Source of the DNA: an uncultured Alphaproteobacteria bacterium
Lineage (GTDB): Bacteria; Pseudomonadota; Alphaproteobacteria; RF32; CAG-239
Reading direction: 5' to 3'
Length of the DNA stretch: 64,000 nucleotides
NCBI GenBank assembly: GCA_947630965.1
Contig: CANRJO010000004.1
Span: 3,143 to 67,142, forward strand
Both the position numbers and the translations under genes were made by a program. Under the pieces are notes generated by a model. The model made no database searches. It worked only from the letters and a program-made list of their open reading frames with translations, and was not told the origin of the DNA. This document shows, one piece after another, positions 29,535 to 46,422 of this stretch (positions are counted from its first letter, which is position 1; each line of letters opens with the position of its first letter).

Positions 29535-30507
29535 TTTCGTCCTCCATTGTTTCAACAACCAAAACTCTGTTACCATTATAAAAAGTAGCAATCGGCGCAG
29601 GTCTTGCGCGAGCAAAAGCTCTGATAAGCGCGGAGCTCACATCAGCAAAACGACCGCGGAAAATAGCACCGGCGCTCAAAACATAATTACGGTTTGTGTT
29701 CCAAACCAATCGCCAACCAGATTCTTGACTCCATTGTGTCAGCAAAGCTTTCAAATTTTGTCCCTCGTCGGCAAACCAGTCACGTACAGGGTCATCCACA
29801 GGAGCGGAATAGGGCTCATCTTCAACATAAACTTCTTCCCTCTCATATCTGTTCCTGTCATATCTGCCTCTGGTTCTTTCTCTATCATATCTGTCCATAA
29901 CAACGCAATCTTCGCCACCCTCTTCTTCAATGCACTCGTCTTCAAAAACCAAATCCACATCTGTTCCCGCGGCAGGTGCTCTAGAGCCTGATCCCTTTCT
30001 GGCGGAATGCTTGCGAGCAGGGCGCGCGCGTACTTTCTTGGATGTGTCTTTCTTAACCTCACGAGCCGGATGGTATGAATCATCTTCCGCAGCGTTAGCC
30101 ATTAAAGCGGCATCGTCAGAGACTTGCTCTTGATAAACAACAATCTCATCTTCAATTGACGGGGGAATAGATGCCGAAATGTTGTTACCTGCTGCGGCTT
30201 GAGAAATTCTTTGATCTCTCGGTGTGCGCTCACCAAAACGTCTGAAGTCAGCGGGCGTGCGCGTAAAATTCACAAAAGGATCTGTAGCGCAGAGGCTCGG
30301 ATCGCCGCTTTCTTGGCATATTTCGGGAAGCGCTGCCGGCTCATAGGGTTCTTCAACCATATCAGCCGTATAATATTCATCGCTGCAGTTTGGACCGAAG
30401 CACTCATTATTGCCATAGCGCGAATTAATCCATGAACAGCCTGAAAGGCTAATCAGACAAAGCGCTAAAACCAATTTATTGTTCATATTTATTCCCCTGT
30501 TATACAT
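29521..30507 (-). CDS. Lipoprotein with C-terminal TcpQ/PilL-like domain (also the DotD family fold)
   Basis: Signal plus lipobox LISLSGC; C-terminal LTQWSQESGWRLVWNTNRNYVLSAGAIFRGRFADVSSAL resembles the TcpQ domain; acidic/basic low-complexity middle. Confidence 0.6.
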   Translation of the reverse strand: MYNRGINMNNKLVLALCLISLSGCSWINSRYGNNECFGPNCSDEYYTADMVEEPYEPAALPEICQESGDPSLCATDPFVNFTRTPADFRRFGERTPRDQRISQAAAGNNISASIPPSIEDEIVVYQEQVSDDAALMANAAEDDSYHPAREVKKDTSKKVRARPARKHSARKGSGSRAPAAGTDVDLVFEDECIEEEGGEDCVVMDRYDRERTRGRYDRNRYEREEVYVEDEPYSAPVDDPVRDWFADEGQNLKALLTQWSQESGWRLVWNTNRNYVLSAGAIFRGRFADVSSALIRAFARARPAPIATFYNGNRVLVVETMEDENAFD

Positions 30508-30573
30508 AAATTTTTAACTATCATACATTTCTCAAAACTAACAATCAAGCACAACAAAAAACTTATTACCAGT

Positions 30574-32091
30574 TTAATAATATGTTCTTGGAGGTGCCAC
30601 AGAAGAACTTTTTGTACGCTTATTTTGCTGTTCCTGCTTAAAGCGGATATTGCGGATAATAAGCGAGTTAGGTTCTCTTGTGGTTGCAATCACGTTTATT
30701 TTTCTGAAATCCACACCGCGATCGGCAAAAATCTTGGAAAGAAGCTTTAAGCGCTTCTTTTGTAGATTAATTGAGCCGTTCGTATCTACGCGAACTTCCA
30801 AAAAAACATCATCATGATCGCGGGCATTGTCCGCAAAGGCACGTATCCATTGCAAAGATTGCCCTGAAATTTCCGCCCGATTGGGCTGAAATGAAAGTCT
30901 TAACTCAGCCGGCATAATAGCATTTTCTTGCGCGGCAAGAGGAGGTGGCACAACTTGTCCTTTCCGGCGCCGTCCTTGGCTTGGCGGCTGAACAAGCGCA
31001 GTGGCGGAATTTCCGTCAGAATTTTCGCTTGTTTTATCATCGTTTTCTTTTTTGCTAAACCATGAAGTAATGCTTTTGAACAGCCCACTGTCTTTATCTT
31101 CTTCACTCATCTCGTTATCTTCAGGTTCAGGCGCCGTGGGTGTACCGTCAATTTTTTCCTCATGGGGCGAGTAAGAAAGCTGCGGTGTCAAATCAGCATC
31201 ATTCATAATTTCGTCCGGAATGGGAATAAGTAAATTTTGAATCATTTTATATGCTGTTTGGCTTGATTCATCAGGTTTTTGCAAAAGCTTGGGCTTAAAA
31301 GTTTCTTCAATTTGAGCAAGCTCCTCATCGGGCAGCTCTTCAAGATGAACCTCTTCTTCAGGCTCGGGCTCTAAATCTTGCTTCGAATCTTGTTCAGGTT
31401 CAGGCTCGGTTTCATCTTTCGGCTCGGGTGTAACCACAGGCTCGAACTCAGCAAAAGTTTCAACTGCGAGTTGATTTTTGGCATATCTGTTGGCGCTTGC
31501 AACAACCCAAGGTGTTTCTTGGTCGGCATCAGCTTCTTCAAGGGCTTTTGTTTGAGCAGCCAAACTTAGGTCATTATCTTCCACTAAATTGCTGTGATAA
31601 ACAGGTTTTGAAAGAAAATTAAGCGGTGTCAGCGCGGCAAAATCAGCGCTTTGAATGCTCTGATGTGTCACGGGCTCGCCTTGCTCAAGCGGAATAATTT
31701 CTTCATCGTCAGGCTCACCCTCATAAACAATCTTGCTATCTGTCGGGGTAGTGTCTTCCAAAACAATCGCATGTGCTTGCGCTAATTCTGTGGCTGTATT
31801 CGCCGGCGGGGGAGGCAGAAGGCTTTCGGAAGCTTCTTGAAAGGTAATTTCAGGTGTTTGGGCTTCATCTTGCGCCGTTATCGGGGCGGGTTCAGAAACA
31901 GCGTCAAAAGTTTTTTTCTTTGTTTCAATAGGCTCTGAGAACAAAGAAATATCAGGAGTTTCAATATATTTTGGAGCGGGATTTTTGAATATGTTTTGAG
32001 GCGAATGGAGCACAAATTTATCGGCGCACACAATGGCAAGCATCGATAAAATAAAGCTACAAACAAAATTTTGAATGCCGTTTTTTTGCAT
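30574..32091 (-). CDS. Signal-anchored Pro/Glu-rich protein with a putative degenerate OmpA/MotB-like C-terminal domain; first gene of the pilus operon
   Basis: 505 aa; N-terminal hydrophobic segment, long acidic PE-rich linker (EPEPEQDSKQDLEPEPEEE), C-terminal ...VFLEVRVDTNGSINLQKKRLKLLSKIFADRGV. Confidence 0.4.
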   Translation of the reverse strand: MQKNGIQNFVCSFILSMLAIVCADKFVLHSPQNIFKNPAPKYIETPDISLFSEPIETKKKTFDAVSEPAPITAQDEAQTPEITFQEASESLLPPPPANTATELAQAHAIVLEDTTPTDSKIVYEGEPDDEEIIPLEQGEPVTHQSIQSADFAALTPLNFLSKPVYHSNLVEDNDLSLAAQTKALEEADADQETPWVVASANRYAKNQLAVETFAEFEPVVTPEPKDETEPEPEQDSKQDLEPEPEEEVHLEELPDEELAQIEETFKPKLLQKPDESSQTAYKMIQNLLIPIPDEIMNDADLTPQLSYSPHEEKIDGTPTAPEPEDNEMSEEDKDSGLFKSITSWFSKKENDDKTSENSDGNSATALVQPPSQGRRRKGQVVPPPLAAQENAIMPAELRLSFQPNRAEISGQSLQWIRAFADNARDHDDVFLEVRVDTNGSINLQKKRLKLLSKIFADRGVDFRKINVIATTREPNSLIIRNIRFKQEQQNKRTKSSSVAPPRTYY

Positions 32092-32503
32092 TTTGCCCCT
32101 GTTTTGAATCTCCCCAAAACCGCACGCTTAAAGGGGTTTAAGCGCTTATAAAGAAGAAATACTAAAAAGCCTGACTCTCGTCAATGCCTTTTTTGGTTTA
32201 TGTTTGAAGAACCTGTCGAAAATGAGTCTGAGCGAGTCAAAGGCGATTCAAAGGCTTGTGCATAACTTTTTTAAGAAACGTTTTTTTAATCTTTTACTTC
32301 GAATCGAAGGTGATGTTCTAAAGTTCACAAATCATAAAAAGCGGTTATTAACGCATTATTCATAAAAAGAGTGTATCTTTAAAAAAGAACACCTTTTTTC
32401 GGACAAACTCATAAAAGACTAAATGGCGAAAAGGGGATAAAAAAGGAATAAATCTTGAAGAACGCAACTTTGCGACTTTATGATTAAGGCAAAAGGAAAC
32501 GAA

Positions 32504-32794
32504 ATGAGAGATATGATCTTAAAAGCCGTTGCCCAGCCGCCCAAAATTTTTTGGGGGCCCGTGTTGCCTGTTGCGTTAAACGCTGGTTTACAGTTTCCGT
32601 TTATGTTTATGATGATTGGTATCGGCGATGTCAACCCATTGTTTTTTGTGGTCAGCATTATTTTAGTCCATACAGGCATTGTCCTTTATGGCACGCGAGA
32701 ACCGCATCTTTCGGCGATGATTCAGGCGTTTGGTCAAACAAACGTAGTCTCGCATAACCTTTATTCAGAGAGGGGGAATAAATTTGAGCCCTGA
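32504..32794 (+). CDS. virB3: Type IV secretion system protein VirB3
   Basis: ~97 aa, two hydrophobic segments; RBS AAAGGAA before ATG 32504; overlaps virB4. Confidence 0.65.
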   Translation: MRDMILKAVAQPPKIFWGPVLPVALNAGLQFPFMFMMIGIGDVNPLFFVVSIILVHTGIVLYGTREPHLSAMIQAFGQTNVVSHNLYSERGNKFEP

Positions 32795-35219
32795 TTTTGA
32801 TTTTTTCAGCTTATTTGCACAAGGTTTAAGCAATGTTGAAGTCATGGTTGCCGTCATCGGTATCATTTCCGCGGCGGCATTTGGCGTCTTGTTAGCCACG
32901 CGTTTTGGTAACTGGATTTTACCGCAACCGCGTGAATCTCGCGTGTCAGACTTTTTGCCTTTTGCGCGTTTAATGGAAGATGGTGTCACCATTCGTTGCA
33001 GCAATGGCTCATACGCGCGTGTTTTCCGCATCAACGGCATAGACCTTTCTTCCGCAACTGAAGAAAAAACTTATTCGATGATGGAAGCGCGCAAAGCCTG
33101 GATAGATAATATGTCCGAGCTCCAGATTGTTTGCCGCGTGATAACACTGCGTGATCTGACAGCATTGGAAAAAGCAGAAGGCGAGTTTAACAACGAAATT
33201 TTGGAAAAAGTTTCCGAAATTTGGTATGAAAATATGACTCGCATTTATACCAACACACATTATATTGTTATTTCTGTGGCGGATCGGAAAGACGCCATCA
33301 AAGACCTTAACTATGCCTCACAAAGTCTTGTTGCCACATTAACCGAGTATGGCGTTGCTCAAATGTACGAGGCGCCCGACAGTCCCGCAACCGATAGCCC
33401 GCTTTATCTTTTTAGCCGGCTTGTGAGCCCCATTTCTAAGCCTGAGCCCAAAATCCGAAACGCCCAAAATGCCGAACTCAATGAAATGTTAACAGCTGAT
33501 CACATACATTTCACCCGCGAACAAGGCATCATTCGGTTTTTCTCGGGCGATAAAGAAAAGTATGAAATTGCCATGGGCATTCGCACCACAGGTGATTATA
33601 TGGATGAGAATATGATTATGTCGCTTTTATCCATAGATTCAGAGCTTGTCTTGTTGCATAACATTCGCCCCATATTCAAGCCTCAAGCACGAATGATGCT
33701 TATTCAGCAACAGCGTATGGCTGTTTTAACAAGTTTTTCGCCGGAAGTTGTCAATCAATATTCCCAAGCGTTAGGAACCATTGAAGATTCAGACGCTGAT
33801 TATCAAGCTTTAACAGAATATGCCATGACGGTTTTAATCCGCGGTGAAACAAAAGAGGAGCTTGACTTTGGTGAATCTGAAGTTCAGCGTATTTGTCGTT
33901 CATTTGGTGTCACGCCAGTGCGTGAAGGTTGGGTGGCACAAGCCACATTTTTCAGCCAATTCCCAACTTATGACACTTACCCCCGGACATACCGCTATTT
34001 ATCGCGTGTTGTAGCCATGGCGGTGTGCTTTGATAAGCCTGCGGAAGGTTTTGGAAAGTCTGACTGGGGGCCGGGCGCCATTACGGTTTTCCGGACCATG
34101 TCGGGTTCGGCTTATCGGTTCCAATTCCACGTTTCTGCTGAAGAATCAGCTGTGGCGCACTGTTGCATTATTGGTCCAACCGGACAAGGTAAAACAACAT
34201 TGCTCACATTCTTGGCAGGGCAGGCAATGCGCCATTCTGATTTAAAAGTGTTCTTCTTTGACCGTCACCGCGGTGCTGAGATTTTTACCCGTGCCATTGG
34301 CGGTGCATACGTTGGTTTTGACGGCGATAATAAAAATGTTTCCTTAAATCCGTTTGATGCCGATAACACACCGAATAATCGCGCCTTTTTGCGCCGTTGG
34401 ATGAAGGCCATTACCCTGGCAGATGATGCGCTTTCCGAGCGTGAAATTGCTCGCGCGGTCACCACCGCGTTTGATTACTTGCGTCCTGAAGAGCGCGTGA
34501 TGAAAAACCTTTACAAAAGCTGTTTCTCGCCAACAGGAACGATGCGCCGCGAACTTTACAGGTGGATAAACCCTGATCAATATGGCAACATCTTTAACGC
34601 CGATACAGATAGTTTGGACTTAAAAGCCAAGCGCTTTATGGCATTTGACTTCACGCACATTTTTGAAGATGAAACCTTGGCGCCGGCGGTCATCAGCTAC
34701 ATCATGCACCGCATTCAATCTGAAACCGGCGAAACAGGTGTGCCGTCTCTGATTATGATTGATGAAACGGCGCCGATGCTCAAACACCCAATGTTTAGAG
34801 ATTACTTCATTATTGGTTTGCAGGAAGGTCGTAAAAAGCGCCAAGCATATTTGTGCGCGTTTCAACAGCCAAACATTATTGATAAACTTGGCGTTGGTGA
34901 GGTCATTCGTGGTCAATGCCAAACAATCATTTTCTTTAGAAACCCGCAAGCCATGCCTGAGGATTACGCCACATGGAACTTAACACAAGCGGAGTTGGAT
35001 TTTGTATTTGGTAAAACTTACCGCGAATTTCCGTATGCCATTTTGCTTTCGCGTCCGGCAACGGGTGAATCGGTTATTTTAGACGTTAATTTAGGCGCCT
35101 TAGGACCATACCTCAAGCTTTACAACTCAGGCCGGAAGAACGTTTTGCTTGTTGAACAACTCATTAAAGAATACGGCGAAGAAAACTTTGTTACAAAATA
35201 TTTAAATATTGGCGAGTAG
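32784..35219 (+). CDS. virB4: Type IV secretion system ATPase VirB4 (TTG start)
   Basis: 811 aa; Walker A CIIGPTGQGKTT, Walker B LIMIDETAP; RBS AGGGGGAA upstream. Confidence 0.9.
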   Translation: MSPDFDFFSLFAQGLSNVEVMVAVIGIISAAAFGVLLATRFGNWILPQPRESRVSDFLPFARLMEDGVTIRCSNGSYARVFRINGIDLSSATEEKTYSMMEARKAWIDNMSELQIVCRVITLRDLTALEKAEGEFNNEILEKVSEIWYENMTRIYTNTHYIVISVADRKDAIKDLNYASQSLVATLTEYGVAQMYEAPDSPATDSPLYLFSRLVSPISKPEPKIRNAQNAELNEMLTADHIHFTREQGIIRFFSGDKEKYEIAMGIRTTGDYMDENMIMSLLSIDSELVLLHNIRPIFKPQARMMLIQQQRMAVLTSFSPEVVNQYSQALGTIEDSDADYQALTEYAMTVLIRGETKEELDFGESEVQRICRSFGVTPVREGWVAQATFFSQFPTYDTYPRTYRYLSRVVAMAVCFDKPAEGFGKSDWGPGAITVFRTMSGSAYRFQFHVSAEESAVAHCCIIGPTGQGKTTLLTFLAGQAMRHSDLKVFFFDRHRGAEIFTRAIGGAYVGFDGDNKNVSLNPFDADNTPNNRAFLRRWMKAITLADDALSEREIARAVTTAFDYLRPEERVMKNLYKSCFSPTGTMRRELYRWINPDQYGNIFNADTDSLDLKAKRFMAFDFTHIFEDETLAPAVISYIMHRIQSETGETGVPSLIMIDETAPMLKHPMFRDYFIIGLQEGRKKRQAYLCAFQQPNIIDKLGVGEVIRGQCQTIIFFRNPQAMPEDYATWNLTQAELDFVFGKTYREFPYAILLSRPATGESVILDVNLGALGPYLKLYNSGRKNVLLVEQLIKEYGEENFVTKYLNIGE

Positions 35220-35295: not shown

Positions 35296-36843
35296 ATGAA
35301 AAAATCCCTCATTTTAAAGCTTTTTCTCTTTGGGACCATGGTTTTACCTGCGCATTCTTCATTTGCGCAATGGCCCACACTTGATATAACGGCAATTAAA
35401 ACAATGATCAGCAGCAATAGTGAGGAAATTGAACAAACCGCTCAAACTGCTGAAAAAACAATGTTAGAGGCTGAAAACTTGGCAGCCACAGGTGCGCCGT
35501 CCAAAACGCTCATTCTTGAAGATGCTAAAGAAAAAGCGGAAAAAGCCAAAGAAAAAGCAGAACGTGTTCGAAAAAGATTAGAATGGTTGCAAAAGAAAAA
35601 AGAGCAATATGAAAAGCTAAAAGAGCGTAAGGAAAAAACGCAAATGTTCATAGAGCAAGGTAAAGATCTGTATTTATCCGGCAAACAAGCTTTTGAGCAA
35701 GGCGAAGAACTTTTTGATGATATCGAAGATAGTGGTTGGGAGGGAGCTACCCAAACAGGTCAAGAAAACTTAAATTACGGGCAACAAACACCTGATTCGG
35801 AAAAAGAGATTCCAAATAACAACACCGAAGAAAAACCACAACAAAATACTCAACCGCAAACACCGCAGAATCAGAGACAAACTCCGTCTGCGCCTTCCAA
35901 CAACAATACAGCCCCCTCATATAGTTCGGGGGGAGATAGTGCTTATTTTCCGGGAAGTTCAGTAGAGCTTCCGCCTGAAAACGAAGAATTTTCTGAAGGG
36001 ACATGGAATATAGAAGGGGAAGAACCGCCTGCGGTCACAAACGGTCAATCTGAAGAGGAAAGTGAAGATAGCGTAGAAGAAAATGAGCAAACGGAAGAAG
36101 CCCTTGAAGGCTCGGAAGATGAGCAAAACTCGGAAGGTGTAGGCGATGAAGCCTCTTCTGACGAACCACAGCGCCGTGCTTTCCGCAAGCCTTCTGAAGA
36201 AGAAAACCAGACCGAAGAGCCCTCATCTGAAACACCAGGTGAAGATCAGCCTCAAGAGCCTTCTTCTGAAACACCAGGTGAAGAAAGCGAAGAACCCTCG
36301 CCTGCAACACAAACAAGCGCTGTTGAAAAAATATACTTCCAAAACCAGATGGCATTCGCTCAAGAGGGCTGCTCGGAATATAAAACAGGGAGTGATGAAG
36401 AAGGAACTTTTATTTTTTCAGACATCATTGCCAACAAATGCTGTATGGGTTTGGAAGATTTAAATGAGGAATCTATTCAAGAGTGCATCAGAACTTGGGT
36501 ATTTGCCATGAATGATCCTGATGCCTCCGATGCCGATGAAGCAAAGAATGAGTATGATAAAGCCTTGCACGATCATATTTCGGCAGATGCTGTAAAATCG
36601 CTTGATGGTGTGGCTTACGCAGCTTCCTTTAAAAAAGATATAGCAGAAGAACTCCGCAAAAAATCGGAGATAACAACCTCCATCCGTGATGAAGAGGGAT
36701 TTATGGGCAAGCTTATGCAAACAAATGTTGATATGATGATGCATTTGTTGGAAATAAACGCCTCTGATTTAACTTATGATTCTTTAAAAGAAGTAAAAAT
36801 TCTGACAAAAGAATATTACGATGAAAACGAGGAAGAAAAATGA
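35296..36843 (+). CDS. Secreted highly acidic protein with a coiled-coil N-region, (E/P/S/T)-rich repeats and a Cys-containing C-terminal domain; T4SS-associated
   Basis: 515 aa; signal peptide (AHSSFA); tandem EPSSETPGE repeats; occupies the virB5/virB6 slot. Confidence 0.5.
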   Translation: MKKSLILKLFLFGTMVLPAHSSFAQWPTLDITAIKTMISSNSEEIEQTAQTAEKTMLEAENLAATGAPSKTLILEDAKEKAEKAKEKAERVRKRLEWLQKKKEQYEKLKERKEKTQMFIEQGKDLYLSGKQAFEQGEELFDDIEDSGWEGATQTGQENLNYGQQTPDSEKEIPNNNTEEKPQQNTQPQTPQNQRQTPSAPSNNNTAPSYSSGGDSAYFPGSSVELPPENEEFSEGTWNIEGEEPPAVTNGQSEEESEDSVEENEQTEEALEGSEDEQNSEGVGDEASSDEPQRRAFRKPSEEENQTEEPSSETPGEDQPQEPSSETPGEESEEPSPATQTSAVEKIYFQNQMAFAQEGCSEYKTGSDEEGTFIFSDIIANKCCMGLEDLNEESIQECIRTWVFAMNDPDASDADEAKNEYDKALHDHISADAVKSLDGVAYAASFKKDIAEELRKKSEITTSIRDEEGFMGKLMQTNVDMMMHLLEINASDLTYDSLKEVKILTKEYYDENEEEK

Positions 36844-37538
36844 GAAAACTGGTTTACTTCTTGCTTTTTCTGTCATTGCCGTTTGCGCTCTATATTAAAT
36901 CGGCGCGCGCGGATATTGATATCATACGCAAAATTGTAGATATATACCGTGAAATTAATCAAGAAGCAGATACGGAAGAAACAATATTAGGCGCCAAGAT
37001 AGAACAAGGGAAAAAAGATATAGTAGGCTTTGATAAAAAGAATCTTGAAACAATTTATAAGAAAGCCCAAAAAGCAGCCGAACAAGCAAAACAGCTAATA
37101 ACTAATCCGTTTGGCACAGGTATAGAACTGGCTCAAACTTTACAAGGCAAATTAGAAACTGATAAAAACGCATCAGATGCAGATAAAGCAGATGCCGTGA
37201 AGGAAATGTATAGCCGAACAAAAGATTCAAGCATTGATGCCGCTGAGGAACAGCAAAAAGCCACCAATTTATTGCTTATTGCCAACACATCGAGTCTTTT
37301 TGCTAAAGCAATGGTTTTGCGTGTAAATTTAAATGAAGAAGAAACAGATATACCTACCCTTGAAACAAAAGAAGATGCCTTGCGGGCAACAACACAATCA
37401 CAGCTGAAAGATATGGAACGTTGGAATGAAATTTTGAAAATGCAAGCCTACATCAGCAATTTTAATAACTTCTTGGAAAACCAAAACTACGCATTGGATA
37501 ATGAAGAAGACGATGATGATAAGGAGGAAGAAAAATGA
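36840..37538 (+). CDS. Small secreted helical protein (232 aa), possible VirB5-like minor pilus/adhesin component
   Basis: Signal peptide (ALYIKSARA); predicted all-helical; size and position are VirB5-like; acidic C-terminus. Confidence 0.35.
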   Translation: MRKLVYFLLFLSLPFALYIKSARADIDIIRKIVDIYREINQEADTEETILGAKIEQGKKDIVGFDKKNLETIYKKAQKAAEQAKQLITNPFGTGIELAQTLQGKLETDKNASDADKADAVKEMYSRTKDSSIDAAEEQQKATNLLLIANTSSLFAKAMVLRVNLNEEETDIPTLETKEDALRATTQSQLKDMERWNEILKMQAYISNFNNFLENQNYALDNEEDDDDKEEEK

Positions 37539-38785
37539 GAAAGCACATCATTTTTTTGGTTGCGCTTGGCACCATATTTTTGTTCTCTCCTGACAATACC
37601 TTTGCGCAGGCTGTCATCAAGTTTGATGCGGCCGGCACGGCATCTAACGTGAGCAAAACCATCACAACCGCCGGCAAAGCTGCGGGCGATACCATAGATA
37701 CAGCCATTAAAGCAAAAGAACAATTAACAATTTTAGATAAAGTAAAAAAGTGGTATGAGGTACAAAAATCGCGCCTTGAAGCCATTAAAACAACGGTGGA
37801 AGCCGGGCAGGAAGCTTATCAAAGCGCGGTAGATGTTGGTGAAACGGGCATAGACCTTTATGAAGATAAAAAATCAGAGATAGAAGCAGAAATGAATGCC
37901 GCCATGTCGGGTTCTGTTGGGAATGCCGCTCAAATAAGAAGAGACATACAAGAGCTAAACAAACAAATGGAAGAACGAAAAAATGTTTTAACAGAGGAAA
38001 ACACGGCAAAAACCAAGGCTGCACAGGAAAATTATGAAACCTTGCAAACTTTATTAAATAACGCAAGCGATGATGAAACACGTGCCAAAATTGAGGCGCA
38101 AATGTCGGCTGCGGCGCAATCAATTACAGAATATGAAGAAATTAAAAGACAACTAGAGCAAGGCGGAGATTACCTTTTAAATGATGGCGAATATCAATCT
38201 TTAGCTCAACAAAAAGCATCATTAGAACAACAGCTTGAGAACCTGGCTGTAGGCGAGCTTGAATCTTTGGCAAGCATGTTGGTGGAAAAGCTCTCCCAAA
38301 AAACGGAAGCGCAAATACAGCAAGAGTATCAGGAAGTGATTAATGAAAACTTTCTTGGCGAAACTGAGCCGATCAACTCTGAAACAACCAAGCGGATCAT
38401 GAAACATCGGCGGGAAGTTTTGCTCAAAGACATCATTCATGCATTTGATGTCGGCACGAAGAAAATGATTTCTCTGCCTCAAAAAAAGAAAACGGCAGAA
38501 AAATTGGCGGGCAACATTTTAAGGGTAGATTTATCATCATCAGCAGAGAGTCTCTTGATAGAAATGAAGATTGAGGAACTCAAAAATTTATTTGATTATG
38601 TAGAGATTCTGCTTGCGGATATGCGGCTTAAAACGGCGCGGAATATGCTTAACCAAGACTTTAAGCTGAAAGATTACACTAAAAACCCCGCGGCAATAAA
38701 TTTGGATAATTATGTTTTCACGGAAGAAGATATTCTTTCGGATCAAGATCAGTCTAGCTTTTTAGATAACGTCCAACCTAAGTAG
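37535..38785 (+). CDS. Secreted coiled-coil protein (416 aa), T4SS-associated
   Basis: Signal peptide (TFAQA); extended heptad-rich sequence; translationally coupled to its neighbours. Confidence 0.4.
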   Translation: MRKHIIFLVALGTIFLFSPDNTFAQAVIKFDAAGTASNVSKTITTAGKAAGDTIDTAIKAKEQLTILDKVKKWYEVQKSRLEAIKTTVEAGQEAYQSAVDVGETGIDLYEDKKSEIEAEMNAAMSGSVGNAAQIRRDIQELNKQMEERKNVLTEENTAKTKAAQENYETLQTLLNNASDDETRAKIEAQMSAAAQSITEYEEIKRQLEQGGDYLLNDGEYQSLAQQKASLEQQLENLAVGELESLASMLVEKLSQKTEAQIQQEYQEVINENFLGETEPINSETTKRIMKHRREVLLKDIIHAFDVGTKKMISLPQKKKTAEKLAGNILRVDLSSSAESLLIEMKIEELKNLFDYVEILLADMRLKTARNMLNQDFKLKDYTKNPAAINLDNYVFTEEDILSDQDQSSFLDNVQPK

Positions 38786-38795
38786 GAGAAAAACA

Positions 38796-41700
38796 ATGAA
38801 GAAACACTTTCAATATGCTTTAATGGTGGCACTCTTACTTGGTGTTTTATCAAGTATACCTGCAAGCGCATTTTTCCCGCTTCCTCCAGGACCCACAACT
38901 CCGGATGCAGACCCCGCAACTGATACAACAAACGGTTTGGCGTATTATATGGAGCAATTAACCAAAAAATTTAATAATTTTGCCACCCAAATGGAAGATA
39001 CGTCAAAGAAAATCCAATCATTGGAGGACAAAGCATCATTAGTTTCTTTCCTTTCTGAAAAAACAGAGGCGGCAAAGGAAACTTTAAGTGTCAAGAAAGA
39101 AAAAGGGAAGTCATCTGTTGACAGCGCAAAGAAAATAGAAGAATGCACCATCGCAGATATTAAAAGCGAAGAGTCTGTGGCTGAGGCGTTTAAAAAATTA
39201 TTTACAAAATATCCTGCAGACATTTTAAAAAAGCACCCGCTCGATTCCAAAATTGTGACAACAGCATATCGCAAAAAAGGTGTGGAATTCAGCAATGATA
39301 TCATGATAGAGGCTTATCTTGTTTCGCGTCAGCTCCAAGAGCGCATGGACGCCTTGCGTGAAGATTATAACACACTTACCGAATGTTACGTTGATGGTAA
39401 GAAAAGCAATGGCGATTCTTGTAAAGCCGCATCAGATACTAGTGATGAAGTTGGCATAATAGTGAACTATTACAGACTAAATGCTATTTACGATTCGCTT
39501 TTACGCATTGCGGAAGAACTCACCGCTTTAAATGCACAATATCGAGCAGCGCAAACCTTGCGTGAAGGTATCAGACCAATTATGCCAGAAGAAGAGGAAA
39601 ACGCACAAAATAACAGCGAGGGCGATAACAGCGAGGGCGAAAATCAGGCATTTAACTTTAGAATGGTAGAAAAAATGTCTTTTGCGCAAATGTTGCCTTC
39701 TTCATCAGGAGAAGAGCCTCAACAAAAGCAGCCTGAAGAGCAAAACAACGCGCAAAATGATGAGAAAAAAGCTTCTCCTAATGCTAGCAAGCTTGATAAA
39801 TTAAGAGACGCATTAACCCCTGTCGTCATGAAAGAACCGGAGCTGTCTTCGCTTTTAAAGGGAACAGATAAAGTGTTTGAAGATATGGCACTTTATGATG
39901 AATTGTACGGTAAGCTCAGTAACGCGCAAAAAATTCACAATTTTAAGGTTGTTATGCCGTTTTACCGTGAAGTTTTTGTGAATGTGCGTCAAATAAGAAT
40001 ATTATATGAAGAAGCCTTAAAACGTCTTAACGCATCAAAGCAATGTGCTATCAATCATTTAACGACTTATTACGGCGGTATGGACTTTGAAGCATTCTTA
40101 AGTTGGGTGCGTTCATCTTATCAGGCAACAAAAGCCCAAACCGCAGTGGAGGTTACGGAAGATGAGTTTTCGCCGCGGCAGGTAGATGATTTTGCCGGCA
40201 CAGGCGATTTATCTCAAATAAGCGAGCTAGAAAAAACTTTGCGTGTTGAGCAAGATTCCGAAACAGGAGATAGCGCGCTAAGACACCCGAGCCTGGAAGA
40301 ACCTCATGAAAAAAATGTACGAGGGCAAGAAGTTTTGTCGTGGCTTATTGGCGAGCAGGCAGTTGAAGACATTAGTGCCGATATGAAAGCTTCAGGCGTT
40401 GGGACCGATAAAAAGCCTGAGGCTGTGAATGTTAAATGGGGCGTTCCCGTCAAGCCTTACCCGCTTTGGGAAGATGAAAAATACTTTTATAAAGAGTATG
40501 TTCTTCAAAAATATAACAATATGAAAATATTTATCCGAAATCTGAATATGCGTGGCGCAGTGGCAGAAATTGTGCAAACAATGCTCGATTCTTTAGATGC
40601 AGGGGAAGAAATTGATGATGTGCCCGCTGTTGATGTTAAGAACTACGGCAATAAAGCGTTAAGCCAACTTTCCGGTAGCCTTGGCGCACCTGATAAGGAA
40701 AATGCTGATCTTGAGGAGATTAAAAAGCAAATTGATGAAAGTTATAAAAAGATGGAAGAGACTAAATTACATTATAAGGAGCTTCTTGAATCGCTTGAAA
40801 GAAAAAAGCAAGGACTTTACCAAGAATATGATAATTATAATGTGGAGCTTACTTCTCTTAAAGAAGATTATAACAACTTCATGGATGAAAAGAACAAAGC
40901 AGATGTCAATGCTCAAACGCAAGATATTGTTTTAGACATCAACCAAGAGCGCATGGATAAGAGCAAATATGCAACGGATGTTCTTGCCAATATGGCAACC
41001 GAAGATAAAAAAGTGGCTGAGGAAACATCTGCTCAAAAGCAAAAAGAAGCTGAAGCGCTTTTAGAGAAGATGGAAATATTAAGGGAAAAAATTGATGATG
41101 TTCGTGCAAGAATTGATGATATAAAGAATTTAATAGAGGCCACTAAAGACGAATTTGGTGGAGCAATGTATGGGCTTAGCAAAGAAAATGAGGATCTTTG
41201 GGAGCAGGCTTGGGAACTTGCAGCCACGCCCAAAGACGATGTCACGCTCTCAAGCGCGTTAGATACGCTTTCTGATAAATCGGGCGATTTATATGCCATA
41301 TTCTCCGATATGGTTAGCACGGCAGATAATCTTATGGCGGATGCTGTAGCTGATGCCATAAAGCGTATTGATGAAGCCTTACAGCAATATGATGAGCTTG
41401 GTAAAGATTTTTATAAGCCGGAAGAGGCGGACAAGGTTTTAAAAATTCACACCGATTTAATGCGTGATTTACAAATGCAGCCCCTGAAATCAACTTTAGG
41501 AAGTTTTGAAGATGTGGTGGATTCCTCGCAAATTCTCAGTATGGCGCAAAACGTTTTTCAAAAAACATTAATGACGGCAACTTGCCAAGGGGGGAGTTGT
41601 TATGCGCCTGATACGGAATTTTTCGTAGGCCTTCCGGCAAAGGCAAGAGATTTTACCGCGCCCAAGAAAATTGAATATACATACACACCGCCAATGCGCG

Positions 41701-42809
41701 AGATTGTCCATTTTGACACAATAGATTATGACACAGTTGTTAAAACGGTTTTAGATGAGCTCGCTCGTGATGCGTTGCTTGAATATGACGAGAGCGCGTA
41801 CTTACCGGAAATATGGCATCGAATCTTGGGACCAAAAGGCTTTGTTGAAAATAATTTTAATGCCAAAAAGATGCTAGAGGCTATTGATCCTGAAAATACC
41901 GCTCCGTTGCTTAACGGGGGTGAATATCCTTGCAAAGCGGGCAAATATATCATCGGGTTTAAAGACAATGCCCTCACCTTGTGGCAAGAAAATGACAGTT
42001 CCTTGCAAGAGTGCTCAGGTATTGAGGAAATTGAAGTGCAGTCTTCAGGTAAAGTTAACGTAAATTTTGAAAATGGCGACCAAATAGTTGGAAGAATGTC
42101 TTCAGACTTTAGCGATGAAGATGCCGAATCTATGTGCAATTCTAGTGAACTGGCAACACTTCTTTCTTATACTGGAAAGTACACTTATAATGGGAAGTTG
42201 AAAGAAATTTACAAATTCTTTGCAGAAGCTTATGATGGTAAGAATTTATCTGAAAGCGATAGCGGTAAAGTGAGAGTTTATAAAAATGCCTTACTGGTTC
42301 GCAACCAATTTGGCGATTATCTGAACTTTGTCGAGTTGGTAGAAAATTATAAAAAAGTTTTAGATGAAATGGAAGTAAAGCTTGATGAAACACGTGAAAG
42401 CATAAAAAAATCTCTTAAAGTCATAAATTATGAGCCGCCGGCAGATTTTGATTTGGCTGACAAAGCAACATATGACGAAATTATGGAAAAGCTTGAAACG
42501 GCTAAAAATGGGCTTATTGAGGAAGTTGTGCCGAAAATAAAAACAATGCATCAAGGCAATGAAGGTATGGATGAAAACATCCAAAAACTGAAGGATATGG
42601 TCAGTGCGCTTCAGCTTGATAAAGACGAGGTTGTTTCACTTTCGGATAACATGAAAGGCGATAGCGAGCTAGCTGAAAAAATTAAGTCAAAAATGGCTGA
42701 TATTGAAATTGTAAACCGCTATAATAAAGAAGCAGAAACAGCGGCGGAAAAAGAAATCAGAAATTTCGGTACGCCTTACTGCGCAAGCACATGTGATTTC
42801 GGTTCTTAG
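38796..42809 (+). CDS. Giant secreted protein (1337 aa), T4SS-associated; no internal TM segments, so not a canonical VirB6
   Basis: Signal peptide (SIPASA); long helical/coiled-coil regions; scattered Cys pairs; C-terminal CASTCDFGS. Confidence 0.45.
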   Translation: MKKHFQYALMVALLLGVLSSIPASAFFPLPPGPTTPDADPATDTTNGLAYYMEQLTKKFNNFATQMEDTSKKIQSLEDKASLVSFLSEKTEAAKETLSVKKEKGKSSVDSAKKIEECTIADIKSEESVAEAFKKLFTKYPADILKKHPLDSKIVTTAYRKKGVEFSNDIMIEAYLVSRQLQERMDALREDYNTLTECYVDGKKSNGDSCKAASDTSDEVGIIVNYYRLNAIYDSLLRIAEELTALNAQYRAAQTLREGIRPIMPEEEENAQNNSEGDNSEGENQAFNFRMVEKMSFAQMLPSSSGEEPQQKQPEEQNNAQNDEKKASPNASKLDKLRDALTPVVMKEPELSSLLKGTDKVFEDMALYDELYGKLSNAQKIHNFKVVMPFYREVFVNVRQIRILYEEALKRLNASKQCAINHLTTYYGGMDFEAFLSWVRSSYQATKAQTAVEVTEDEFSPRQVDDFAGTGDLSQISELEKTLRVEQDSETGDSALRHPSLEEPHEKNVRGQEVLSWLIGEQAVEDISADMKASGVGTDKKPEAVNVKWGVPVKPYPLWEDEKYFYKEYVLQKYNNMKIFIRNLNMRGAVAEIVQTMLDSLDAGEEIDDVPAVDVKNYGNKALSQLSGSLGAPDKENADLEEIKKQIDESYKKMEETKLHYKELLESLERKKQGLYQEYDNYNVELTSLKEDYNNFMDEKNKADVNAQTQDIVLDINQERMDKSKYATDVLANMATEDKKVAEETSAQKQKEAEALLEKMEILREKIDDVRARIDDIKNLIEATKDEFGGAMYGLSKENEDLWEQAWELAATPKDDVTLSSALDTLSDKSGDLYAIFSDMVSTADNLMADAVADAIKRIDEALQQYDELGKDFYKPEEADKVLKIHTDLMRDLQMQPLKSTLGSFEDVVDSSQILSMAQNVFQKTLMTATCQGGSCYAPDTEFFVGLPAKARDFTAPKKIEYTYTPPMREIVHFDTIDYDTVVKTVLDELARDALLEYDESAYLPEIWHRILGPKGFVENNFNAKKMLEAIDPENTAPLLNGGEYPCKAGKYIIGFKDNALTLWQENDSSLQECSGIEEIEVQSSGKVNVNFENGDQIVGRMSSDFSDEDAESMCNSSELATLLSYTGKYTYNGKLKEIYKFFAEAYDGKNLSESDSGKVRVYKNALLVRNQFGDYLNFVELVENYKKVLDEMEVKLDETRESIKKSLKVINYEPPADFDLADKATYDEIMEKLETAKNGLIEEVVPKIKTMHQGNEGMDENIQKLKDMVSALQLDKDEVVSLSDNMKGDSELAEKIKSKMADIEIVNRYNKEAETAAEKEIRNFGTPYCASTCDFGS

Positions 42810-42818
42810 GAAAGAAAA

Positions 42819-43574
42819 ATGCCTGAAAAGCTTGAAAATAACGGAATACAAAAACTAGCCATAACAGACGGGGCTGCCGCGCATTTTGATTATATCACCA
42901 CGGAAGAGGCGGAAAGACGTACGGCAAAAGAGGCTTATTATTGTTGGCTTTCAAGACTTGTGATGTTGTTGGCGGTGTTATCTTTTGGCTTTTTTGCAAG
43001 CGCGTCTTTGGTTTTGTTTCGTTTGGCGCCTGAAGTAACGATTGAGCCGTTTTTGATTATGCGGCAAGATAATTCTGAAACAATGGTGCGTTCAGAAGTC
43101 ATTTCGCCCAATATGGCTTCGGCAAACCAACTCATGGAAAATTTTGTGCGCCAATACATCACTTTGCGCAATTCCATAGTCAATGATGAGCGTGAGATGC
43201 AATCTCGTTGGTATTTAGGCGGTATGGTCAGTTATCTTTCCTCAGCCAAAGTGTTTAAAGAATTTGACAAACCGGCGCGTGAGTTATTGCGTACCGCATC
43301 ATCTAACCATCTGGTGCGAGATGTTGAAATCATATCTGTCAGCAAGGCAGGCGGTGAAAAAAGCCCGGTATGGAAAGTTGATTTTAGAACATATGATCTT
43401 TCCTTGGAAAACAGAAATGATCAAACTGGTGCCTTGGTTTTGGTCACGCGTTATTGGACAGCCTCTGTGACGGCGTTTTTCATCCCCGAGCGGATGTTTA
43501 TGACAAAGCGTTTAATGAATCCCTTAGGTTTTACCGTCACGCGTTATTCACAAGCAGAAGTTGAAATTTTGTAG
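42819..43574 (+). CDS. virB8: Type IV secretion system protein VirB8 (paralog a)
   Basis: 251 aa; N-terminal cytoplasmic region + one TM + periplasmic NTF2-like domain with C-terminal NPLGFTVTRY motif. Confidence 0.75.
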   Translation: MPEKLENNGIQKLAITDGAAAHFDYITTEEAERRTAKEAYYCWLSRLVMLLAVLSFGFFASASLVLFRLAPEVTIEPFLIMRQDNSETMVRSEVISPNMASANQLMENFVRQYITLRNSIVNDEREMQSRWYLGGMVSYLSSAKVFKEFDKPARELLRTASSNHLVRDVEIISVSKAGGEKSPVWKVDFRTYDLSLENRNDQTGALVLVTRYWTASVTAFFIPERMFMTKRLMNPLGFTVTRYSQAEVEIL

Positions 43575-43725: not shown

Positions 43726-43914
43726 ATGTATAAAAAAATCATATTGTTTCTTGCCGTTTTGTTGTTATCGGCGTGTGGTTTGTTTGGCTCTTATTATGAG
43801 CCGGAGCCTGTAGGTATCGGTAAAGATGTGAACGAGCTCAAGCTTTCGCCGTGCGCCTGTATTGAGGTGGAGCTTCCTAAAACTCTGCCGGATTGGTTTG
43901 TTGCAACAATTTAA
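43726..43914 (+). CDS. Small lipoprotein (62 aa), VirB7-like by size and position
   Basis: Signal plus lipobox LLSACG; lies between the two virB8 paralogs as in the rvh-type virB8-virB7-virB8 arrangement. Confidence 0.5.
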   Translation: MYKKIILFLAVLLLSACGLFGSYYEPEPVGIGKDVNELKLSPCACIEVELPKTLPDWFVATI

Positions 43915-43928
43915 GCTAAGAGAGTTTC

Positions 43929-44669
43929 ATGGCTGAACAGTTAGGTTCAAATCAAGGCGAACAAAAGTTGCTTGCAGGCAGGGGAACGCCACGCCGAGCA
44001 GTATCGCGTGAGCGCAACTCTTCAGAGGAAGTGATTGTCGTCAATGCTAGTGAAAAGCGCTACTTGTGGACAGCGCGTGCTTTTGCGGTCATTGTTGTCA
44101 TCAGCCTTTGTTGCAACTTAGTGTTAATATTGGCAATCATGCAGCTTGTGCCTCTTTATCGTTTAGAGCCCTTTATGCTCACTTTTGAAAACAAAGAGGA
44201 ACAGGTCTATGATATTGTTCCACTGAAAAATATGGAAGATCAAAAAGGTATAACGGAGGTTTTTGTCCGTGAATATATCTTAATGCGGAGCGCTTTCACA
44301 GGTGATGTTGCTGAAATGGAATCGCGTTGGATGCCGGGCGGACCTTTGCAGGAAATGTCCTCTTCTTCTGTTTATCAGTCATTTGTTGATCGGACGGCAA
44401 AGCCGGCGCTAGATCTCATTCGGACAAAAGGTCTTGTGCGTTTGGTGCGTATCATGACTGTCAACGAACTTGGCCGCGGTTTGTGGCAGGTTGAATACGA
44501 AACACGTGATATGTATCCTGATTCGGCTGCGCCGGAAATCAATTATTGGACAGCCTCTTTGCGGGTGACGTATCGTAAGAAAAATGTCAAATTCGGCGAA
44601 CGTCTGAACAATCCCATTGGGTTTACCGTCACACGTTATTCGCTTTCACGCAATAATCAGGCGGAATAA
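43929..44669 (+). CDS. virB8: Type IV secretion system protein VirB8 (paralog b)
   Basis: 246 aa; one TM (FAVIVVISLCCNLVLILAIMQLV); C-terminal NNPIGFTVTRYSL motif. Confidence 0.7.
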   Translation: MAEQLGSNQGEQKLLAGRGTPRRAVSRERNSSEEVIVVNASEKRYLWTARAFAVIVVISLCCNLVLILAIMQLVPLYRLEPFMLTFENKEEQVYDIVPLKNMEDQKGITEVFVREYILMRSAFTGDVAEMESRWMPGGPLQEMSSSSVYQSFVDRTAKPALDLIRTKGLVRLVRIMTVNELGRGLWQVEYETRDMYPDSAAPEINYWTASLRVTYRKKNVKFGERLNNPIGFTVTRYSLSRNNQAE

Positions 44670-44685: not shown

Positions 44686-46422
44686 ATGGAACGTTATTTT
44701 ACAAAATTAAGTTTAGTTATAAGTATGGTTTTAGCATCAGCTTCCGCATATGCGCAGGCAACCATTGACAGCCTCAATCAAAATGCTGATCAAAGCCAAG
44801 GAATGTACCAACCAATGAATATGGGCTATACGGGCATTTCTTCCTTAGGTATGACCCAAAGCGCCTGGCTTGATCCGTTGCAAAATTTGGGCGAGGGGCA
44901 ATCAAAGCCGGCATATTCAAAATATTATTGGTCACCTGATCTGGTTTTGCCAATCAGACTGCGTGAAGGGATGATTACGCTTTTAAATTTTCCGCAATGG
45001 GAATTAGTGGAAGATGTTTATATTGGTGATAGCAAAACTTTTGACGGACGCATTTCCGGCCCCAACACGCTTTTGCTTTACCCGAAATCAGGTGCCATGG
45101 TTGGTGTAGATACAAACATCATTGTTTTCGGACGTTCAGGAAACAAATATGTGTTTTATGCCAGAAGTGAGGGCATTAACACCGAGCGCTTAACAAACTC
45201 CATTATTGATATTGAGGTTATAGACGCTGCTTCCCCACAGGGAAAAGCGGGCACGGGAAACGGATCTAGTAGAGTAAACGCAAGCGCTTACAGAGGTGGT
45301 AATAACCTATCGGTCGATTCTAATTTCACAAAACGCTTTCAAAAGGATGACTGGATTCAAAGCATTCCCTTGGATCCAACCCAATTTAAATTTGATATAG
45401 AGGTTTACGTTCCCAACCCTGATGATGTTGTGATTGCACCAGAGCGTGTATGGCGTGATGATATTTTCACATACATTGATTTAGGCGAAAAAGCGCTGAA
45501 TATGGTTCAACGCCCAATTGTCACGTTGATTGTTGAGCGTGTGGAAACGCCTGTCGGGTTTAGGGCAAAAGGACCGAACAATCGGCTGATTATTGTTGAA
45601 GGCGTTGGCGATATGGTTTTAAGAAACGGCAAACGTATTGTATGCTTAAAGTTACGCCGCTCCGATGACGCGGACATCAACCCCACATATTACAACAATC
45701 CGGATGAATGGGATGTTTCTGAAAAATTACCGCTAAGCATGAACAATGTGGCAGGCTCGGCGGGGGCTCCTGCAGCGGCAGCGTCTTCTGCAAACGCGGC
45801 AGCAGCTTCTTCGACTCCTGCTCCGGCAGCAAGTGGCGCGGATTTAGATGATGACGAAGAAGATAACAGTTGGTTGGCAAAATATTACACACCGCCGGCA
45901 GGTTCGGGCTCAAATGCTGACAAAGACGGCTTTAGCTTGGCAAAAGATTCTTCTGTCGGACAAGAGGCATTGGTTGGGGAATATAATGAAAAAGTCGGTG
46001 CAGACGGCGAACTCTTAATTCCGCAATATCTCCAAGATCCGTCCAAAACGGTAGATTACAGCAAAATGCACAAGTTGCCTCATCTGCAAGCCGATTCGAA
46101 TAAAGATGTCAGCAACCTCTTATCATCATACGGCTATGGCAGTGGTTTTGCTGATGCTGAGTTTGGCAATATTTCAGTGGAACTTGGCACAGACGCTGAT
46201 GTAAACAATCTTGAAGGTTTGTGGAATGATTTAAGCGGTCGTTACACGAAGTTACTTGGTTCTTATCAGCCTTTTTATTCGGTTGATGCGCCGGCAGACG
46301 GTCAAGGGCGCGAGCTTTACCATCTGCGTATAGGACCAGTGCCTTCCATTGAAAAAGGCGATAAAATATGTTCTCAACTAGGGCGTAACGGTGTTTTCTG
46401 TAGTGTAGTCAGAGTGCAATGA
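44686..46422 (+). CDS. virB9: VirB9/CagX/TrbG-family outer-membrane core protein, extended (578 aa) by an Ala/Ser-rich linker and a C-terminal SPOR-like peptidoglycan-binding domain
   Basis: Signal peptide (SASAYAQA); VirB9 N-domain; C-terminal RELYHLRIGPVPSIEKGDKICSQLGRNGVFCSVVRV resembles SPOR. Confidence 0.65.
   Translation: MERYFTKLSLVISMVLASASAYAQATIDSLNQNADQSQGMYQPMNMGYTGISSLGMTQSAWLDPLQNLGEGQSKPAYSKYYWSPDLVLPIRLREGMITLLNFPQWELVEDVYIGDSKTFDGRISGPNTLLLYPKSGAMVGVDTNIIVFGRSGNKYVFYARSEGINTERLTNSIIDIEVIDAASPQGKAGTGNGSSRVNASAYRGGNNLSVDSNFTKRFQKDDWIQSIPLDPTQFKFDIEVYVPNPDDVVIAPERVWRDDIFTYIDLGEKALNMVQRPIVTLIVERVETPVGFRAKGPNNRLIIVEGVGDMVLRNGKRIVCLKLRRSDDADINPTYYNNPDEWDVSEKLPLSMNNVAGSAGAPAAAASSANAAAASSTPAPAASGADLDDDEEDNSWLAKYYTPPAGSGSNADKDGFSLAKDSSVGQEALVGEYNEKVGADGELLIPQYLQDPSKTVDYSKMHKLPHLQADSNKDVSNLLSSYGYGSGFADAEFGNISVELGTDADVNNLEGLWNDLSGRYTKLLGSYQPFYSVDAPADGQGRELYHLRIGPVPSIEKGDKICSQLGRNGVFCSVVRVQ

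Follow-up and report, generated by a model that had tools for sequence, protein, structure and literature searches.

A fast-diverging cassette of secreted, putatively VirB5-derived proteins in a chromosomal type IV secretion operon of uncultured gut Alphaproteobacteria

Four secreted proteins encoded within the operon

Here, we examined a stretch of 64,000 nucleotides (the window) from the genome of an uncultured Alphaproteobacteria bacterium (assembly GCA_947630965.1, contig CANRJO010000004.1), in which a type IV secretion system (T4SS) operon of the VirB/Trb type contains a cassette of four genes, named A to D below. The window is chromosomal, with genes for ATP synthase a/b/b', a xerD-like gene, dciA, aroK and rph. 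The operon runs in the order virB3, virB4, A, B, C, D, virB8, a gene for a 62-residue lipoprotein, virB8, virB9, a gene for a 1262-residue beta-flower protein, virB10, virB11 and a gene for a 1475-residue Cys-rich protein, and the cassette occupies the slot between virB3-virB4 and virB8. All four cassette genes lie on the forward strand (+): A (A515, 515 residues) at positions 35296-36843, B (B232, 232 residues) at 36840-37538, C (C416, 416 residues) at 37535-38785 and D (D1337, 1337 residues) at 38796-42809.

A first-pass annotation of this DNA had described the four products as secreted proteins without transmembrane segments, translationally coupled inside the T4SS operon, and our analysis agrees with this description. 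ATGA overlaps are present at A/B and B/C, gaps of only 10 nt (C to D) and 9 nt (D to virB8) separate the remaining genes, and a Shine-Dalgarno-like purine run precedes each of the four starts. Signal peptides and membrane segments were read from Kyte-Doolittle hydropathy and AxA-like sites, not from a dedicated predictor. Each protein has one N-terminal hydrophobic segment that ends in an AxA-like site (SFA-Q, ARA-D, TFA-Q and ASA-F for A to D, respectively), as claimed earlier for all four, and the cleavage-site Ala is near-invariant across the orthologue alignments. No membrane segment beyond the N-terminal one exceeded the Kyte-Doolittle threshold in any of them.

The helical and coiled-coil character of the cassette proteins noted in the earlier annotation was also found here, in their composition, in the coiled-coil-only PDB matches of the family profiles and in DSSP assignments of the D models. 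A is highly acidic (D+E 23%, isoelectric point 4.2) and contains two EPSSETPGE copies plus one variant, as had been noticed, but calling its C-terminus Cys-rich was generous, with only four Cys (359, 382, 383 and 397) in the last third. The 90%-identity cluster of A (members P0156 and P0157) holds a 488-residue variant, which suggests that this protein varies in length between members of the species, perhaps where the acidic repeats lie. Pfam and NCBIfam scans of A-D, and Pfam scans of up to 138 homologues one by one, yielded coiled-coil noise only, and no toxin or enzyme family was found among them.

To place the cassette among its relatives, species-representative genomes were scanned for VirB4, which gave at least 226 stretches with a relative; 80 loci were kept, of which 68 span the cassette region. 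Nearly all of the 80 come from metagenome-assembled genomes labelled uncultured Alphaproteobacteria, Candidatus Scatocola (filed under Rhodospirillales by NCBI), CAG:495 and the like, and we take their clade to be RF32 in GTDB. To judge by the record names, the samples came from human, ruminant, chicken and other guts, and several gut-type assemblies in ENA and Logan contain the genes studied here at 100% identity. In every spanning locus, the virB4-virB8 interval measures 7.4-9.8 kb and contains four to seven co-oriented open reading frames (ORFs); nearly all of these ORFs are devoid of membrane segments besides the signal peptide, and none has more than two. A C-like gene (388-618 residues) and a D-like gene (1217-1654 residues) are present in 68 of 68 loci, and the B family in about 45. 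Variation is greatest in the first cassette gene. Some lineages have A divided between two genes, the first matched by the hidden Markov model (HMM) of the A N-terminus and the next by that of the A C-terminus, and in some lineages extra B-like genes are inserted. No polytopic VirB6-like gene, tested as one with at least five membrane helices, was present in the operon or in any cassette of the 68 loci.

Because the reading frames are kept in these 68 loci, A-D are real genes. The T4SS itself seems to do something central for the clade, given that at least 226 stretches carry a virB4 relative and that all of the spanning loci keep the cassette. A tblastn search of C and D against 72,556 plasmids gave no match, and a search of the literature on T4SSs of this clade found nothing.

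One explanation for the cassette is that A-D are unrelated coiled-coil envelope proteins which lie in the operon by chance and have no role in secretion; it would fit the fact that no curated family matches them. However, the gene order is kept in every related locus examined while the upstream neighbours differ (a pilus cluster adjoins the operon in the window and is absent upstream of it in L091, the closest relative used below). The translational coupling of the genes and the profile links to VirB5 described in the next section also speak against such passengers, and we regard this explanation as extremely improbable.

Probable kinship of the cassette proteins with VirB5

The nearest annotated T4SSs are those of Microvirga, Erythrobacter (L088) and Sphingosinicella (L089) megaplasmids, whose VirB4 proteins are 35.5-37.5% identical to that of the window. 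Their gene order is virB2, virB3, virB4, a gene for VirB5 (251-273 residues), a gene for a 420-450-residue protein, a gene for a 58-68-residue lipoprotein, virB8, virB9, virB10, virB11 and virD4. One of the plasmid VirB5 proteins passes the PF07996 (VirB5/TrbJ) model (30.3 bits vs a cut-off of 24.7). The 420-450-residue protein is annotated as a hypothetical protein and has no membrane segment, and it is VirB5-like as well (hhalign 96% to VirB5). Its genes lie at 23225-24709 in L088, at about 12230-13647 in L089 and at 24061-25347 in L087; the GTG starts annotated for L088 and L089 lie downstream of the real ones, and the corrected N-terminus has a signal peptide and, after it, the Cys-Pro-rich motif C..PPPC-IV.D. 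No polytopic VirB6-like gene is found between virB4 and virB8 in L088 or L089, in which virB2 and virD4 are present; for comparison, VirB6 proper (352 residues, five segments) was seen on a Paracaedimonas plasmid. The small plasmid lipoproteins ahead of virB8 share P.GIG..N.LK.SPCACI with the 62-residue lipoprotein of the window, to which they are clearly homologous by this sequence criterion. A gene directly after virB4 whose product is of Sec type and has no membrane span is common to the window, the 68 related loci and four plasmids.

The HMMs of the cassette families were run against the 961 stop-to-stop ORFs of the four plasmid loci together with reversed-profile controls, and hhalign comparisons were made without signal peptides and with reversed-sequence controls. 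A is composed of a signal peptide (residues 1-24), a VirB5-type mature N-terminus (P27-x-x-D30 ... G66), a Lys/Glu-rich helix, an acidic disordered insert (about residues 140-345) that holds the EPSSETPGE repeats, and a C-terminal module (residues 345-515) with the four Cys. Among 69 first-position proteins, G66 is invariant and P27 and D30 are nearly so. The spacing from P to G is 39 residues in A, the same as in the plasmid VirB5 of L088 (IPVID ... IGQVG) by manual count on aligned sequences. For both halves of A the best of the 961 ORFs was a plasmid VirB5, in register with E 0.0033 for the N-terminal HMM (reversed control 1.8) and with E 2.3e-6 for the C-terminal one (reversed control 5.4). 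When the A-type profile was compared with 177,635 PDB sequences, TraC (1r8i) ranked 6th (E 0.013) and TrwJ (7o3v) 8th (E 0.023), and DUF4141 gave weak matches to 4 of 69 A-type N-termini (best E 1.3e-4). By this profile evidence, A would be a diverged VirB5 homologue with a long acidic insert and belong to the VirB5 superfamily.

B aligned with the C-terminus of A at 94.3% by hhalign (E 1e-7, 133 columns; reversed control 0.2%). Its family alignment contains invariant R161 and R194 and a conserved mature start (DIE), and no Pfam or PDB sequence match was found for it. B may therefore be described as a short secreted paralogue, or copy, of the C-terminal half of A-type proteins, with a VirB5 membership less sure than that of A. 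For the C HMM, the three best of the 961 ORFs were three plasmid VirB5 genes (E 4.9e-6, 2.1e-4 and 0.01; reversed control 0.23), and hhalign related the C-terminus of C to the C-terminal half of VirB5 (73.5%, E 3e-5, 113 columns). C is probably a long, helical VirB5-like paralogue. It resembles the megaplasmid 420-450-residue protein in its place, size, Sec signal and lack of a membrane segment, but the plasmid protein has a Cys-Pro-rich N-terminus that C lacks, and no direct profile match connects the two (hhalign 0.2%). As the nearest plasmids carry VirB5 next to a long VirB5-like protein, such a tandem appears to predate the gut clade.

Compared with VirB5/TrbJ of known systems (PF07996; TraC of pKM101 and TrwJ of R388), the likenesses are the position of a gene for a Sec-exported, helix-rich product directly after virB4, the similarity of the A-type profile over most of TraC and TrwJ, the P-x-x-D ... 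G register shared with plasmid VirB5 and the match of C to the VirB5 C-terminal half. The differences are that four to seven genes are found here instead of one, that A, C and D have 515, 416 and 1337 residues whereas VirB5 has about 220-270, that A contains an acidic disordered insert of about 200 residues, that scores stay below the Pfam threshold and that no virB2 or virB6 partner lies nearby. In the first-pass annotation, the four proteins were thought to replace VirB5 and VirB6. The slot was correctly recognized, but A, and less surely C and B, would themselves be diverged VirB5-family proteins, and A-D are not VirB6, because they have no membrane helices.

Structure of protein D and divergence of the cassette

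D is a giant, lineage-specific secreted protein that can be read as a fusion of a small B/VirB5-like module with about 1100 residues comprising a middle domain, a coiled-coil stalk and a C-terminal head. The N-terminal module (residues 26-260; 38871-39575, +) occurs as a free-standing secreted protein of about 220-264 residues in some relatives: an HMM of residues 26-300 matched a separate gene directly upstream of a shorter D in seven loci (E 1e-43 to 6e-55), as well as 5 of 45 B-family members at E <= 1e-3 (best 2e-5). After a linker follows the middle domain (residues 340-600; 39813-40595, +), recognized by its conserved columns, in which H381, N382, G519, W558, D560, Y568, K572 and Y573 are invariant. 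Pfam scans of 69 D members gave no match in this domain, and AlphaFold2 with eight sequences predicted two segments at a local confidence score (pLDDT) of about 70-85 with a stretch below 50 between them. The stalk (about residues 600-904; 40596-41507, +) has low column information and is poorly conserved; it was predicted, again with eight sequences, as long helices at pLDDT 70-86, and its PDB matches are to SMC, MukB and tail-needle coiled coils. An eight-sequence model of residues 101-1300 reached a pLDDT of 52, with values under 50 in its globular parts, and was not used for fold search.

The C-terminal domain (residues 905-1337; 41508-42806, +) consists of a mixed alpha/beta part with beta strands, then four long helices and a conserved PYCAxY end. 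The AlphaFold/Foldseek check suggested in the first-pass annotation delivered a confident model for this domain (83 sequences, pLDDT 90.6, predicted TM-score 0.77) and no PDB or BFVD match: the best Foldseek hits had E 0.53 (PDB) and 0.23 (BFVD), with query-normalised TM-scores of 0.11 or less. The model did not match TraC, TrwJ or CagL, and the sole AB5-like Foldseek entry is noise (E 2.5). This head differs strongly between species yet keeps a small invariant core, with D952, P956, R968, E969, D974, D977, P1004, W1007, C1046, C1073 and C1329 invariant or near-invariant. The scattered Cys pairs reported earlier for D hold up: among its 11 Cys, C417, C930, C935, C1046, C1073 and C1329 are conserved in 69-83 homologues.

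With residues 905-1337 of D, a HMMER scan of 1.84 billion representatives recovered only 185 clusters (50% identity). Among the best 150 of these, most members have 1100-1850 residues and match at their C-terminus, and in the shorter members the match falls at the protein's own end; the D family thus appears to be confined to this lineage with one architecture. Other homologue searches gave seven matches for D alone and six of the same for the 69-sequence D alignment, and none came from a query that joined C, B and parts of A artificially. In the public records checked, D homologues are unnamed hypothetical proteins, and D brings in a family of about 185 sequence clusters. One D-family homologue carries a beta-flower segment (E 7.8e-5, below the Pfam cut-off).

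Periplasm-assembled pertussis toxin is pushed out by the Ptl system, a T4SS without VirD4. A-D might similarly be Sec-dependent cargo, toxins or effectors, of a VirD4-less machine. All four bear Sec-type signals, no VirD4 coupling protein is encoded in the window, effectors often evolve fast and the head of D has no fold match in PDB or BFVD, all of which would suit cargo. On the other hand, profile comparisons tie A and C to VirB5, which is a structural protein, and the genes belong to the operon of the machine, with stop and start codons that overlap. C and D, in addition, occur in strict synteny in every one of the 68 loci, which is not typical of effector repertoires. As no member matches a toxin or enzyme family either, ADP-ribosyltransferases included, we consider a cargo role quite unlikely.

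The cassette and the machine differ sharply in their rates of change. Across the 80 loci, identity to the window protein is 77-91% for VirB4, 56-89% for VirB3, 58-94% for the 62-residue lipoprotein, 43-74% for VirB8a, about 48-78% (true orthologue) for VirB8b and 64-85% (partial coverage) for VirB9, against 21-41% for A, 22-38% for B, 21-37% for C and 21-33% for D. In L091, the relative used for the comparison of nonsynonymous divergence (dN), the values are 93% for VirB4, 94% for VirB3, 98% for the lipoprotein, 79% for VirB8a, 85% for VirB8b and 80% for VirB9, against 51% for A, 44% for B, 51% for C and 46% for D. Relative to L091, dN is 0.38-0.51 for A-D and 0.046 for VirB4, with synonymous divergence (dS) saturated. 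Protein divergence of A-D is thus about tenfold that of VirB4 and the core.

Codon differences were also counted in a within-species variant with 1.2% nucleotide difference. D shows 15 nonsynonymous and 21 synonymous differences, C (partial) shows five and four, and VirB8a shows none and 10. Gene-wide dN/dS of the cassette is about 0.2-0.4, and that of the core is near zero. The cassette is much less constrained than the core. Gene-wide positive selection on the cassette was rejected at this dN/dS.

These rates bear on another explanation, namely that A-D form an unexposed periplasmic scaffold or stalk which replaces VirB6, and perhaps VirB2, and which changes fast only because helices and linkers tolerate change. 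A dN/dS of about 0.2-0.4 without gene-wide positive selection is what such a scaffold might show, and the coiled coil and the linkers are indeed the least conserved parts. The lack of a polytopic VirB6-like gene in the operon and in related cassettes can be added, and the Erythrobacter and Sphingosinicella operons, also without VirB6 between virB4 and virB8, look complete. However, a polytopic subunit of the inner membrane cannot be replaced by a soluble protein, and the gene for VirB6 may lie at another place in the genome. In addition, relatives of VirB5 in studied systems occupy the pilus tip or the distal stalk, strong variation between species is seen in the globular head of D too, and other periplasm-located parts (the VirB8 paralogues and VirB9) keep 79-85% identity. 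A hidden scaffold is therefore unlikely in our opinion, albeit more plausible than a cargo role.

Possible contact role of the cassette and its genomic surroundings

In characterised systems, VirB5 forms a pentamer on the stalk, is located at the pilus tip and serves as an adhesin. By analogy, the reading that we favour, with a probability of roughly 0.6, is that the cassette is a fast-diverging set of VirB5-derived secreted proteins which provide the distal, contact-making parts of a chromosomal VirB/Trb-type T4SS in uncultured gut Alphaproteobacteria. Sec would export A-D to the periplasm, where they would fold and, in the case of A and D, form disulfides; assembly would follow at the cell-surface (distal) end of the channel, as for VirB5 elsewhere. 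There they might contact a target, either a host surface or another cell. D could be the long reach-out element whose coiled coil holds a species-specific head away from the cell. Surface exposure of A-D would account for a divergence about tenfold that of the ATPase and the core.

Several observations weigh against this contact role. First, neither A-D nor any of 69 A-type, 45 B-type and 69 C-type homologues reaches the PF07996 threshold, and the links to VirB5 run through profile comparisons with plasmid intermediates. The N-terminal hhalign links reach only 44-57% once signal peptides are removed. Reversed helical profiles also tend to choose VirB5 ORFs as their best, non-significant match, which means that composition adds to the forward scores. 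B is linked to VirB5 only via A, with no direct link, and the N-terminal module of D matches plasmid VirB5 weakly (E 0.075; reversed control 2.8). Second, virB2, virB6, virB1 and virD4 are all missing from the 64-kb window, which bears, for VirB2, VirB6 and VirD4, on the anchoring of a VirB5-type stalk or tip. No virB2 is present ahead of virB3 (32091-32504), and hidden copies of any of the four genes in the window are unlikely because the intergenic gaps are too short. Third, since dN/dS is about 0.2-0.4 and not above 1, the fast divergence could reflect weak constraint on helical or disordered proteins and not selection on an exposed surface.

A further-reaching version would make the system a new architectural type: a contact machine without pilin or VirD4, with an exterior built of several ancient VirB5 paralogues, a D head of undescribed fold that binds a host or microbial receptor, and species-specific heads that set the choice of host or partner in this widespread group of uncultured gut commensals. 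We offer this only as a tentative and rather doubtful extension of the contact role.

The Trw system of Bartonella lacks VirD4. Its VirB5 (TrwJ) and pilin (trwL/VirB2) copies are amplified, diversifying and surface-exposed, and act in host-specific adhesion to erythrocytes (PMC10936683). The present locus shares with it the presence of several VirB5-type paralogues in one T4SS locus, their fast change relative to the core and the lack of a VirD4 gene nearby, and a T4SS used for contact, as in Trw, would be the closest functional analogy. The Trw copies, however, are recent tandem duplicates of a normal-sized VirB5, co-amplified with VirB6, VirB7 and pilin genes, whereas the paralogues here seem ancient and varied in architecture, include a 1337-residue protein and have no pilin or VirB6 gene in the locus.

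CagL of Helicobacter pylori is regarded as a VirB5 analogue. The first-pass annotation had compared the four proteins to the adhesins CagL/CagI/CagH, which are likewise extra secreted T4SS proteins proposed to bind a host receptor at the surface. A surface, tip or adhesin role would indeed be the best-supported reading of A-D, but the link to Cag did not survive: no sequence or profile similarity to A-D was detected, the operon layout is different and the core here is of the compact VirB/Trb type. CagL structures exist in PDB, and no Cag protein was among the PDB profile matches of the cassette families. The check for an integrin-type motif was negative, with RGD absent from all four proteins and one KGD, in D.

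In the rvh system of Rickettsiales, virB3-virB4 are followed by polytopic membrane proteins of the VirB6 family. It resembles the present operon in having virB3-virB4 and then a tandem array of large variable proteins, with virB8 duplicated. The rvh array proteins are polytopic, whereas A-D have no membrane helices beyond the signal peptide. The rvh T4SS is the subject of PMC2653234 and PMC7648143.

Beyond the earlier annotation, two points are new: the cassette diverges about tenfold faster than the machine across a gut clade, and D is lineage-restricted with a head that has no fold match in PDB or BFVD. Taken as a whole, the novelty lies in an old cassette whose apparent VirB5 paralogues have diversified in architecture and include one giant, lineage-specific protein; its T4SS has an unusual set of parts, and the cassette is kept across a large uncultured gut clade. 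Although none has ever been cultured, the carriers are widespread in the guts of humans, ruminants, birds and other animals; the variable cassette is an obvious candidate for a specificity determinant of their T4SS. If A-D do form the outer end, they could serve as antigens, receptor baits and strain markers for the host-microbe interface, and the cassette would show how far a VirB5 module can be elaborated.

The other genes of the operon, all on the + strand, are those of a recognizable T4SS. The first is a virB3-like gene (32504-32794) for 96 residues with two hydrophobic segments, assigned by sequence and hydrophobicity and by its plasmid counterparts annotated as VirB3, and the next encodes the VirB4 ATPase (32784-35219, 811 residues; TIGR00929 at 1.6e-113, PF03135). 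Two virB8 paralogues, a (42819-43574; PF04335 at 3.3e-17) and b (43929-44669; PF04335 at 1.3e-19), flank the gene for the 62-residue lipoprotein (43726-43914), which stands in the VirB7 position, is recognized from its sequence with the lipobox LSAC and is highly conserved (63-98% identical in relatives). The virB9 gene (44686-46422; PF03524 at 4.2e-11) encodes a C-terminal SPOR-like, peptidoglycan-binding tail (20.2 bits, just under the Pfam cut-off of 21 bits). The genes for the beta-flower protein, VirB10 and VirB11 follow at 46419-55413 (PF21785, PF21784, PF03743 and PF00437; N-terminal hydrophobic segments). Within 46419-54432, the 1262-residue protein has a membrane anchor at its N-terminus and consists almost wholly of beta-flower repeats (PF21785, 1.3e-93). 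Its ORF shares 89 nt with that of VirB10 (1437 residues), in which about 1000 residues of such repeats precede the TrbI domain. The operon ends downstream of virB11 with a gene (55535-59962) for 1475 residues with a signal-like N-terminus and 92 Cys in regular spacing (residues 127-762) like that of epidermal growth factor (EGF) domains. It has no significant family match (Teneurin EGF at 21 bits, below the cut-off), and its product is a candidate surface protein or cargo.

Upstream of the T4SS, and divergent from it, lies an adjoining type IVb pilus cluster of the R64 thin-pilus/Tcp-like kind (21663-32091, - strand), with genes for a PilS-like pilin, a T2SSF platform protein, an ATPase, PilO, a secretin and a TcpQ-domain protein. 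Another fast-evolving product, an acidic protein of 505 residues (30574-32091; 30-42% identical), is encoded in it. Not every relative has the cluster next to the operon: in L091, murJ and infA lie upstream. The gene at 60241-61389 (- strand), just past the T4SS operon, encodes a protein with a Fic/DOC domain and a C-terminal helix-turn-helix. The window also contains a PD-(D/E)XK nuclease gene followed by a UvrD-type helicase-nuclease gene, which we take to be addB and addA. Between the addA-like gene and the pilus cluster, a 475-residue ORF with no family match (18731-20158) lies in a low-GC stretch (34% vs 40-50% around it), which may be a small foreign insert.

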